DNA of 64,000 bases from Cyanidioschyzon merolae (Eukaryota): the NCBI GenBank assembly GCA_000091205.1, contig AP006502.2; one strand, 5' to 3'. Positions within the stretch are counted from its first letter, which is position 1; each line of letters starts with the position of its first letter. Made by a program: the position numbers and the translations under genes. Shown piece after piece: positions 1 through 1,985 of the stretch. The notes below the pieces were generated by a model. That model was not told where the DNA came from and made no database searches. It worked only from the letters and a program-made list of their open reading frames with translations.

Positions 1-1985
1 CCGGATATGAGGTCGCGAAGAGACTCGTTGTAGATCTCCAACATGCTAATTTGAATATGGCATGAAAAGGCAGCACTTCGCTCTTCACAAAGCCGGAAAA
101 GCTCCGCCAACGCCCGATAATTGACACCCCGTGACTCTGGAGAACCGGACATCGTGTACGTCTTTCCGCTGCCTGTTTGCCCGTAAGCAAAAATGCAAAC
201 GTTGAAGCCATCTAAGGCGCAGGTGACGAGCGGCGACGTGTCTTCGTAGATCTGCTCCTGAGAGTGCTCTGGACCGAATACGCGATCAAAATCGAAAATC
301 TTCTGCCGTACAGCGATTTTGTCGTTATCCAGCACGTTGCACACAGTGTGGTCGTTTTCCGTAGGGAGCACGGGACGAACGCGGCAGAAAACTCGAATGT
401 TGCCGGTAATCTCCTGGACCTGGTTGAAGAGCTTGCGACGCCAGTGGAACTCTTTCCGCCACATGGCCATGCTGTGGTCACGGAGCCGCTGGCACCGCTC
501 GATTGCTTGAGAGAGCGTCGCGCTCTGGGTGTGAATCATAGACGCAGTCGCGTCGAGAGAGGCGCGAGCTTCCGCTCGTAGCTGCTCCAAAATGGCCTGA
601 AGCAGCTGCGTTTGCTCCCGGGCATGTCGCAGGCGATGTGCTAAACCTGCGCGATTCAAATCGTGAGCGGGATCCGGTTGCGTGCCTTGGAATGACAGCT
701 GCGACAGGTTCATCTTTTGCACAGCCAGCGCCGAAACGTTCGCATTCTGGGAGCCTTTGCATTCGGTGTCCAACGATGCTTCCTCGGAAAGCGCCCCAGA
801 AGGTCTGACGTCAGACCGTGCCTGCAACATACTACGCAGTGTGCTGTTTTCGCGACGCATCTCCTCGAGCTCGTTCCGGATGCGTCGCACTGCAGCCATC
901 ACACCGTCCTCGGAAGAGCCTAGGATCTTGCTCAAGGGGCTCATGATTCCATTCATGAGATACGAATTCAATACCTTGCGACAGAGCGTTGGAGTATTCC
1001 ACTGGTCGTTCAGACGCACCGTTACATTTGCGTCGCTCTGGTTTTCTGCGATGCGTTCGATGAGCATTTTGCGATTCGGTCCATGCTCCCATATCATGGC
1101 GTTCGTCCGCTGGTTCCGAATAAAGTACTTGTAATCAAAATCACTTGCGGCATCGGGATCTAAGGTGAAACAGTACTCCCAATCACCGTGCCATGAATTC
1201 CGATTGACGCTGCGTCGGCCGGATTCTTTCTGAGCGAGTGCCACGGGCAACACTTTTTCCATGCGTACGGCACGCTCCACGTTCCAGCAACCGAGTTCCG
1301 GGATCGAACCCGAGACATAGATTTCTTCGTGAGCCGGTTCGCTAGGTAGGTGGTGCATGGCGAGTCGAACTTTCACTACTTTGGCGCCACGGTCGTCCAG
1401 TAAAACCTCCGTCGCCATCGCTCGCTGCAATTCGATGAGGTGCTCTGTGTCACGGTTGACCCAGCGATTGACAGAGAACGCCCACTCGGTGCACGCTTCC
1501 CCTGGACTGCTGCAGATGCTCTCGACGGAAACCCGTTCCAAGAACCAGCCAAGTGCGTCAAGTGCGTCGGTGTCACCGGCTTCGTCCTCCAAACGCAGTA
1601 TTACCTTGTCCAGAGAGCCGATATCTTCTGCGGCAGGCACCGTGAATGACTCAGAACTCGATCTCAGGAGCGGCACGAGTTCGGGCGCCTCGGCGATGGA
1701 GGAGCTCGAGCTTTGTTCGAAACCACCACGAACCAGATGAGCAGACGTGTTCAGTGCAACCTCGGGTAAAGCGTTCAACGAACCAACTAGAGTAATATAC
1801 ACGAAGAAGCGAGCGCCATCTGGAGTTATATCACCGGAGGTCAAGGTTATACGGTACTGCATTTTCGGAAGGGCGCTCGCGTTCACCTGCGAACTACGAG
1901 CACCCTGCGACGCGTCGCTTCCACCGGCCTTGCGACTACGCTTACCCTGCGGTTTCCGTGGCGAACTCGTCTGGTTTTTGGTCAT
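1..1985 (-). CDS. Kinesin-14 (C-terminal motor kinesin) with N-terminal PLAT/LH2-like and CBM20 starch-binding-like domains; motor C-terminus runs off the window start (partial)
   Basis: Manual minus-strand translation of the frame with codons at plus positions 3k..3k+2: no stop from 2012 down to position 1; first ATG at 1985 (stop TGA at 2015-2013). Motor motifs read directly: [20 protein letters not shown] (neck, ~470-400) and [49 protein letters not shown] (P-loop, ~300-170). Upstream is a coiled-coil stalk (~1000-480). CBM20-like block [24 protein letters not shown]...[10 protein letters not shown]...[25 protein letters not shown]...LNDQW (~1400-1010). PLAT-like block [26 protein letters not shown]...[13 protein letters not shown]...[10 protein letters not shown] (~1860-1440). 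Missing from the supplied ORF track because the ORF is open at the window edge. Confidence 0.85.
   Translation of the reverse strand, partial: [661 protein letters not shown]

Follow-up and report, generated by a model that had tools for sequence, protein, structure and literature searches.

What would a microtubule motor do with a starch-binding domain? The question is raised by one end of a 64,000-nucleotide stretch of DNA (hereafter 'the window') from the cyanidiophycean red alga Cyanidioschyzon merolae (GenBank assembly GCA_000091205.1, contig AP006502.2), where a minus-strand open reading frame (ORF) encodes the first part of a kinesin-14 whose N-terminal tail carries a PLAT/LH2 domain and a CBM20 domain. 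What appears to be new, judging from the sequences, is a motor protein with an apparently competent starch-binding module that occurs throughout the Cyanidiophyceae, is apparently confined to them, and is distinct from TOP, the kinesin-14 already characterised in C. merolae. The original prediction, made from the letters alone, had proposed this domain order and suggested microtubule-based positioning of starch or glucan granules or of membranes.

Kinesin tails define motor cargo, and to our knowledge no described kinesin uses a carbohydrate-binding module; a report linking a kinesin to CBM20 or to any starch-binding domain could not be found in the searchable literature. C. merolae is genetically tractable and has five kinesins, one plastid, one mitochondrion, cytosolic starch, and polyglucan division rings, and a glucan-binding minus-end motor would therefore offer a testable handle on the coupling of glucan stores or division rings to the spindle.

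Domain architecture of the protein

The minus-strand frame that begins at window position 2399 has its last in-frame stop at 2013–2015; from there to the window edge 670 codons follow without a stop, a length with a chance probability of about 3e-12 at 55% G+C. From the first ATG (1985) to position 3, 661 codons run without interruption before the window edge cuts the gene, and all peptide strings quoted in the original prediction occur in the translation. Domains were called with hmmscan against Pfam-A and judged by each family's curated cut-off (GA). Four families exceed their cut-offs in the window protein (PLAT, CBM_20, Microtub_bd, and Kinesin), and the order from N to C terminus is PLAT/LH2, CBM20, a conserved linker, a variable stalk, the kinesin-14 neck, and the start of the motor. 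The parts are laid out as follows, all on the minus strand:

3..1985, 5' part of one kinesin-14 gene (661 codons), in a frame open from the stop at 2013–2015 to position 3
1863..1985, N-terminal extension, residues 1–41, basic and Ser-rich, not conserved; alternative start ATG at 1860–1862
1383..1862, PLAT/LH2 beta-sandwich domain, residues 42–201 (Pfam, AlphaFold, and Foldseek)
996..1382, CBM20 starch-binding-type domain, residues 202–330 (Pfam, AlphaFold, and Foldseek)
831..995, conserved linker, residues 331–385, predicted to be helical (conservation; low-confidence helices in the AlphaFold model)
459..830, variable stalk, residues 386–509, presumed coiled-coil dimerisation region (weak matches to coiled-coil-type families; CMT097C annotated 'CC' in PMC1434745)
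3..458, kinesin-14 neck and first ~125 motor residues (Pfam Microtub_bd and Kinesin; Protein Data Bank [PDB] matches)
1284–1286, 1128–1130, and 1089–1091, codons of the site-1 residues W234, K286, and W299 of the CBM20 domain (coordinates checked)

We hold it to be very nearly certain that this four-part architecture is real. The same order of PLAT, CBM20, stalk, and kinesin-14 neck plus motor is upheld by profile scores, by fold matches, and by five other cyanidiophycean proteins. The contrary view, that one gene encodes the PLAT/CBM20 region and another the motor, or that the ORF is an artefact, has in its favour solely that the ORF runs off the window; we give it hardly any credence. The 670-codon frame is uninterrupted, the N-terminal part and the motor form one ORF here and in every collinear orthologue, and the catalogued C. 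merolae gene CMT097C (see below) is a single exon with expressed sequence tag (EST) support (PMC1434745).

At the motor end, Microtub_bd (PF16796, covering the kinesin-14 neck and the motor start) scores 150.5 bits over residues 510–660, and the Kinesin family scores 131.1 bits over residues 547–660, a match ended by the window edge. The neck lies at residues 516–538 (window 372–440) and the P-loop, GQTGSGKT, at residues 602–609 (window 159–182). A search of PDB sequences ranks only kinesin-14s at the top (Ncd at 125 bits, followed by KIFC3, KCBP, Kar3, and KIFC1), well ahead of kinesin-1 at ~83 bits. The neck is nearly invariant across orthologues, and this family-specific segment stands directly N-terminal to the motor with the stalk ahead of it; N521 aligns with the conserved kinesin-14 neck Asn, whose counterpart we take to be N340 of Ncd. 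Profile scores, neck, and PDB neighbours thus agree that, by sequence, the window protein is a kinesin-14. Pfam found no CH domain either in the window protein or in its full-length orthologues, and the protein is therefore not a KCH-type kinesin-14.

Only the first ~125 motor residues lie inside the window, and the remainder is known from the orthologues, in which switch I (SSRSH) and switch II (DLAGSE), both outside the window, are intact. The orthologues also bring a correction: the full-length proteins do not stop at the motor, which is internal, and ~330 amino acids come after it. Beyond the motor, all orthologues have a short coiled coil and then ~300 residues rich in Ser, Thr, and Pro. 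As a separate observation, a conserved motif, RETRADLLRRQANEAKRNGTPSRV.YAFGSR (VIYAFGSRLE in Galdieria), closes this orthologue tail; it was seen in P0001, P0002, P0003, P0037, and the locus at L001 10001–13396.

Ahead of the neck, the stalk gives only weak Pfam matches to coiled-coil-type families; dimerisation through it would be expected by analogy with other kinesin-14s. The linker, residues 331–385, matched no family in the Pfam-A scan. At the other end of the protein, a second in-frame ATG lies at 1862, and the orthologue P0001 begins at the residue aligned with M42, other orthologues having short unrelated extensions. The true start of the protein may be this ATG at 1862, because residues 1–41 are not conserved.

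The profiles for PLAT and CBM_20 are both significant in the C. merolae protein. The PLAT match itself is marginal and partial, with 25.3 bits (E 2.7e-5, GA 23) over residues 106–182 and profile positions 44–110 of 117; the domain falls below threshold in P0001 (18 bits), and the Galdieria orthologues score 57–60 bits over the whole profile. In an AlphaFold model of residues 42–370, built from a 4-sequence alignment, the first 160 residues form eight strands at a predicted local distance difference test score (pLDDT) of ~80. Foldseek places residues 42–201 closest to the PLAT domains of 12-, 5-, and 15-lipoxygenases and of pancreatic lipases, with E values from 4.6e-6, a probability of 1.00, and ~145 aligned columns.

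CBM_20 (PF00686) scores 45.1 bits (E 8.7e-12, GA 23.3) over residues 206–311, and 47–65 bits in the orthologues, those of Galdieria reaching 64–65 bits. The 4-sequence alignment left this domain poorly modelled (pLDDT ~30); a 30-sequence CBM20 alignment gave, for residues 195–345, a model with a pLDDT of 78.5 and a predicted template modelling score (pTM) of 0.75. Foldseek ranks 1–30 of this model in the PDB are all CBM20 domains (E 1e-7 to 5e-4), among them those of fungal glucoamylases, CGTases, Bacillus cereus beta-amylase, laforin (4RKK), and human GPCPD1 (2Z0B).

Residue equivalences were read from a HMMER alignment to the starch-binding domain of Aspergillus niger glucoamylase (1AC0). 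W234, K286, W299, E300, and N304 align with W543, K578, W590, E591, and N595 of that enzyme, which we take to be its glucan-binding site 1, and these five residues are invariant in all orthologues from Cyanidioschyzon to Galdieria. Site 2 (Y527, Y556, and W563 in the A. niger enzyme) is doubtful on the same alignment: W269 falls on W563, the Y527 position is occupied by Ala218/His219, and the Y556 loop is replaced by an insertion. Four signature aromatics of CBM20 have been described, corresponding to F5, W32, W60, and W99 of laforin (Gentry et al., PMC2064834). Three of the four are kept as the alignment reads, the first being Leu in Cyanidioschyzon and Phe in Galdieria. Taken by its sequence, the domain is a bona fide CBM20 of the laforin-like cytosolic type, and it probably does bind alpha-glucan.

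One alternative has to be weighed here, namely that PLAT and CBM20 serve only as protein–protein or second microtubule-binding modules of a spindle cross-linking, pole-focusing kinesin-14, glucan binding having been lost. In classical kinesin-14s such as Ncd and Kar3 the tail binds a second microtubule or a partner, and the degenerate site 2 and the unusual loop insertion would fit such a loss. However, the invariance of the site-1 residues from Cyanidioschyzon to Galdieria is hard to explain without a glucan ligand, and C. merolae already has a classical C-terminal-motor kinesin-14 in TOP. We regard the loss of glucan binding as quite improbable.

Distribution, conservation, and identity of the gene

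Orthologues with the same domain order, which the original prediction had proposed to seek in related genomes, are present in Cyanidiococcus, Cyanidium, and Galdieria. They comprise P0001, a hot-spring metagenome protein of 1131 amino acids that is 71% identical; P0002/P0072 of Cyanidiococcus yangmingshanensis; P0003 of Cyanidium caldarium; P0037 of Galdieria partita (1223 amino acids); and P0075 of Galdieria sulphuraria (1232 amino acids, deposited as 'Kinesin-4'). These collinear proteins, 986–1232 amino acids long, thus come from four other cyanidiophycean species and the hot-spring metagenome relative, and the PLAT-CBM20 kinesin is conserved across the class Cyanidiophyceae.

It is also apparently restricted to that class. 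In a filter-free HMMER search with the 329-residue tail against 1.84 billion representative proteins, matches to the whole tail were confined to these algae, and the other ~35 matches covered CBM20 alone or PLAT alone. Twenty of the partial matches were scanned with Pfam: 14 are laforin-like CBM20+DSP phosphatases (at least two of them from the red alga Timspurckia), 3 have CBM20 only, 2 are multi-PLAT proteins, and 1 is an unrelated NTPase; none of the 20 has a kinesin domain. A profile search with the N-terminal alignment added one match, the Galdieria-like fragment P0074. Outside the family, the closest motors are plant and green-algal kinesin-14s (~50% identical), and the nearest CBM20 domains are those of red-algal and protist laforin-like phosphatases.

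Amino-acid identities of the C. merolae protein to P0001, P0002, and P0003, in that order, differ by segment:

PLAT: 59%, 58%, 44%
CBM20: 88%, 87%, 69%
Linker (residues 331–385): 89%, 96%, 78%
Stalk: 50%, 41%, 32%
Neck and motor: 81%, 78%, 71%

By this measure the constraint on CBM20 is as strong as that on the motor, since the identities to the nearest orthologues are comparable (87–88% versus 78–81%). The linker is the most conserved segment of the protein; in Galdieria only its start, D.W.TP...RK, is kept. Conservation from Cyanidioschyzon to Galdieria shows that the tail is a functional module and not a recent accident.

Elsewhere in the window, three complete ORFs match proteins of C. merolae 10D exactly (CMT116C, sulfate adenylyltransferase, and PRPP synthetase), and the window is therefore chromosome 20 of that strain. 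A trypanosomatid source, which intronless genes at 55% G+C might have suggested, is rejected by these exact matches and by the homologues. Table 2 of Richardson, Simmons, and Reddy (2006; PMC1434745) catalogues five C. merolae kinesins, of which CMT097C is given as a kinesin-14 of 1160 amino acids with a coiled coil (CC), an LH2 (= PLAT) domain, and an internal motor, encoded by a single exon with EST support; the entry gives no CBM20 and proposes no function. The same paper notes that C. merolae has neither dynein nor myosin (PMC1434745). The window gene is almost certainly CMT097C: it agrees with that entry in locus number, in its LH2/PLAT domain, in having an internal motor, and in length, since the 661 residues here plus the ~500 that lie beyond this point in the orthologues make roughly 1160. 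This match is one of catalogue description and orthologue lengths. CMT097C is one of only two kinesin-14 motors in C. merolae.

The original prediction held the architecture to be undescribed, which stands in part. The kinesin-14 class and the LH2/PLAT domain were published in 2006 (PMC1434745), and CBM_20 is flagged on orthologues in public precomputed Pfam tables; in the searchable literature, the CBM20 of CMT097C itself goes undiscussed, and the gene identifier CMT097C has no mention beyond PMC1434745.

The other kinesin-14 deserves attention here, as identity with it would have tied CBM20 to the polyglucan division machinery. TOP, the three-organelle division-inducing kinesin, is the characterised kinesin-14 of C. 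merolae; it is located at the mitochondrial division site and guides Aurora kinase (PMC5398205, PMC6925296). That the window gene is TOP was considered and rejected: the TOP cloning primers (PMC6925296 Supplementary Table 6) are absent from the window, with no match even when 3 mismatches were allowed or when they were searched as 13-mers, and the other cloning primers of that table are absent from it as well. The TOP expression primers are given there as ATGATTCGAGACAGGGTTCACGC (MIRDRVH) for the forward primer and a 3' end encoding ...RVSFQEP-stop (PMC6925296 Supplementary Table 6), primers being assigned to constructs by the order in which the rows appear in the PDF-extracted table. The TOP reverse primer matches exactly on a hot-spring metagenome contig, within an ORF (L003 4368–6923, minus strand) that encodes 851 amino acids from its Met, starts MIRDRVP, ends RVSFQEP, and has a C-terminal motor without PLAT or CBM20. 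In size and layout this protein corresponds to CMR497C, the other kinesin-14 of the PMC1434745 table. On the primer evidence, TOP is therefore the other kinesin-14 gene, of CMR497C type, and the window gene is functionally uncharacterised.

Candidate cargoes and functions

The role that we consider most likely, with a little less than an even chance, is that of a minus-end-directed motor tying cytosolic alpha-glucan to mitotic microtubules. The protein would dimerise through its stalk and neck coiled coil and, as do other kinesin-14s, would move toward microtubule minus ends. Its N-terminal tail would be the cargo end, with CBM20 gripping an alpha-1,4-glucan surface and PLAT presumably adding a second contact, to a membrane surface or to a protein partner. 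The cargo would be the storage glucan of the cytosol, which in Cyanidioschyzon takes the form of floridean starch granules and in Galdieria that of glycogen particles. Microtubules are known in C. merolae from mitosis only, and it is then that the motor would tether glucan or draw it toward the spindle poles; granules and anything attached to them would segregate with the poles, clearing the division plane.

Plant kinesin-14s offer a parallel, having taken over minus-end-directed transport. The CBM20 of Cm-laforin binds amylopectin and decorates the cytosolic floridean starch granules of C. merolae (PMC2064834). Landing on storage glucan is the default expectation for the window protein because Cm-laforin, which has the closest type of CBM20, does so. 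Storage granules as the specific cargo are nevertheless a tentative proposal, which we would place nearer to one chance in three than to an even one.

Several points weigh against this role. Glucan binding, directionality, dimerisation, and localisation are all properties that we infer. CBM20 site 2 is incomplete, with Ala/His at the equivalent of Tyr527; the domain of the Cyanidioschyzon clade contains an inserted loop of ~20 residues that is poorly modelled; and the PLAT score of C. merolae itself is barely over threshold. Storage granules are not known to be membrane-bound, and a granule cargo leaves the role of PLAT unexplained. Numerous starch granules might, moreover, partition adequately without a motor. 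Finally, Galdieria stores glycogen and not granules (PMC9424615); it keeps the domain, and 'granule transport' is therefore not the whole story.

The pairing of a glucan-binding with a presumed membrane-binding domain leads to another candidate. The tail may recognise the nanofilaments of polyglucan in the outer rings that divide plastid and mitochondrion, CBM20 on the glucan and PLAT on the membrane acting as a coincidence detector, and the motor would attach division sites, or organelles that have just divided, to the microtubules and poles of the spindle. The plastid-dividing (PD) and mitochondrion-dividing (MD) filaments consist of glucose polymers, which are made by two glycogenin-like enzymes of the GT8 family, PDR1 and MDR1 (PMC6424925; bioRxiv 10.64898/2026.03.04.709689). 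The filaments rest on the outer membranes of the two organelles, on the cytosolic side, and no other known structure in the cell would engage both tail domains. Outside the lineage, bona fide PDR1 orthologues are reported to be elusive (bioRxiv 10.64898/2026.03.04.709689), and the PLAT-CBM20 kinesin is likewise found only in Cyanidiophyceae. Kinesins do act at such sites, as TOP, the other kinesin-14, is located at the mitochondrial division site (PMC5398205). However, it is TOP and not the window kinesin that is named as the division-machinery kinesin in the texts consulted, the linkage type of the filament glucan is not stated in those texts, and a generic CBM20 would also meet plentiful storage glucan as a competing ligand. 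The plastid, furthermore, divides largely before the spindle forms. We therefore consider recognition of the division rings unlikely, at about one chance in five. Were it true, a kinesin-14 would physically link the organelle-division machinery to the mitotic spindle in an alga that lacks dynein and myosin, and would be the first motor known to have a polysaccharide cargo handle.

The strong conservation of the linker bears on one further candidate, in which the task of CBM20 is to regulate or sequester the motor and not to hold its cargo. In interphase the module would keep a mitotic kinesin-14 parked on storage glucan or inhibited there, or it would link the spindle to carbohydrate reserves, much as AMPK beta ties signalling to glycogen through its glycogen-binding module. 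With microtubules confined to mitosis, the motor would be without a track for most of the cell cycle, which would suit parking. We know of no precedent for glucan-regulated kinesins, and the PLAT domain would be left unexplained. In its favour, CBM20-type modules target or regulate non-amylolytic cytosolic proteins such as laforin and GPCPD1 (both among the fold matches; PMC2064834), and the linker directly after CBM20, more conserved than any other segment, could well be a regulatory element that binds a partner or another part of the molecule. We judge a regulatory CBM20 to be decidedly unlikely, and return to the tethering of cytosolic glucan to mitotic microtubules as the preferred role.

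Surroundings of the gene and comparison with known systems

Upstream of the kinesin gene, the intergenic region contains a trinucleotide repeat, (GCT)14.7 at 2239–2282, which reads (CAG/GCA)n on the strand of the gene and lies ~255 nucleotides upstream of the ATG at 1985; a second repeat, of CAG type, is found at 4399–4429. The upstream neighbour is a UBP-type deubiquitinase (zf-UBP, UCH, UBA; window 4797–7802, minus strand). A deubiquitinase of this kind also adjoins the kinesin in the metagenome relative (L001 715–3708), and its opposite orientation relative to the kinesin in the two loci suggests a local inversion. The rest of the window carries ordinary intronless housekeeping ORFs, encoding an aldo-keto reductase, GST, tryptophan 2,3-dioxygenase, pescadillo, PAP2, CNNM, sulfate adenylyltransferase, PRPP synthetase, RNase PH, SNase-Tudor, and glyoxalase II. 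The ORFs at 8767–9729, 12358–13659, and 34070–35047 have no Pfam match, and tRNA and Rfam scans of the 64,000-nucleotide window detected nothing.

Among known systems, TOP (Yoshida et al. 2013) is the nearest by organism, being a kinesin-14 of the same alga and the only other minus-end-type motor in its genome; it differs in being another gene, with a C-terminal motor and neither PLAT nor CBM20. CMT097C as catalogued in 2006 (PMC1434745) agrees with the window gene in organism, chromosome, kinesin-14 class, coiled coil, LH2 domain, and internal motor; the catalogue gives neither a CBM20 nor a function.

Closest in terms of CBM20 sequence are laforin and the laforin-like phosphatases (CBM20 plus DSP), including Cm-laforin, which share the same signature Trp and Lys residues and, through laforin 4RKK, the fold. 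Like the window kinesin, they are cytosolic, non-amylolytic proteins from organisms with floridean starch, and in laforin the CBM20 is a targeting module. In the kinesin, the effector is a microtubule motor and not a phosphatase, there is one CBM20 and not two or three, and PLAT precedes it.

In its overall design, the window protein most resembles, as far as the sequences indicate, the cargo-carrying kinesin-14s of plants and green algae (CH/KCH-type KIN-14 and KCBP). These come from lineages lacking cytoplasmic dynein and are ~50% identical to it over the neck and motor, and the green-algal CH-kinesin P0082, with a CH tail module N-terminal of an internal motor, has a similar layout. Whereas the tails of those plant and green-algal motors carry CH (actin binding) or MyTH4-FERM, the cyanidiophycean kinesin has PLAT plus CBM20 in place of such an N-terminal module.

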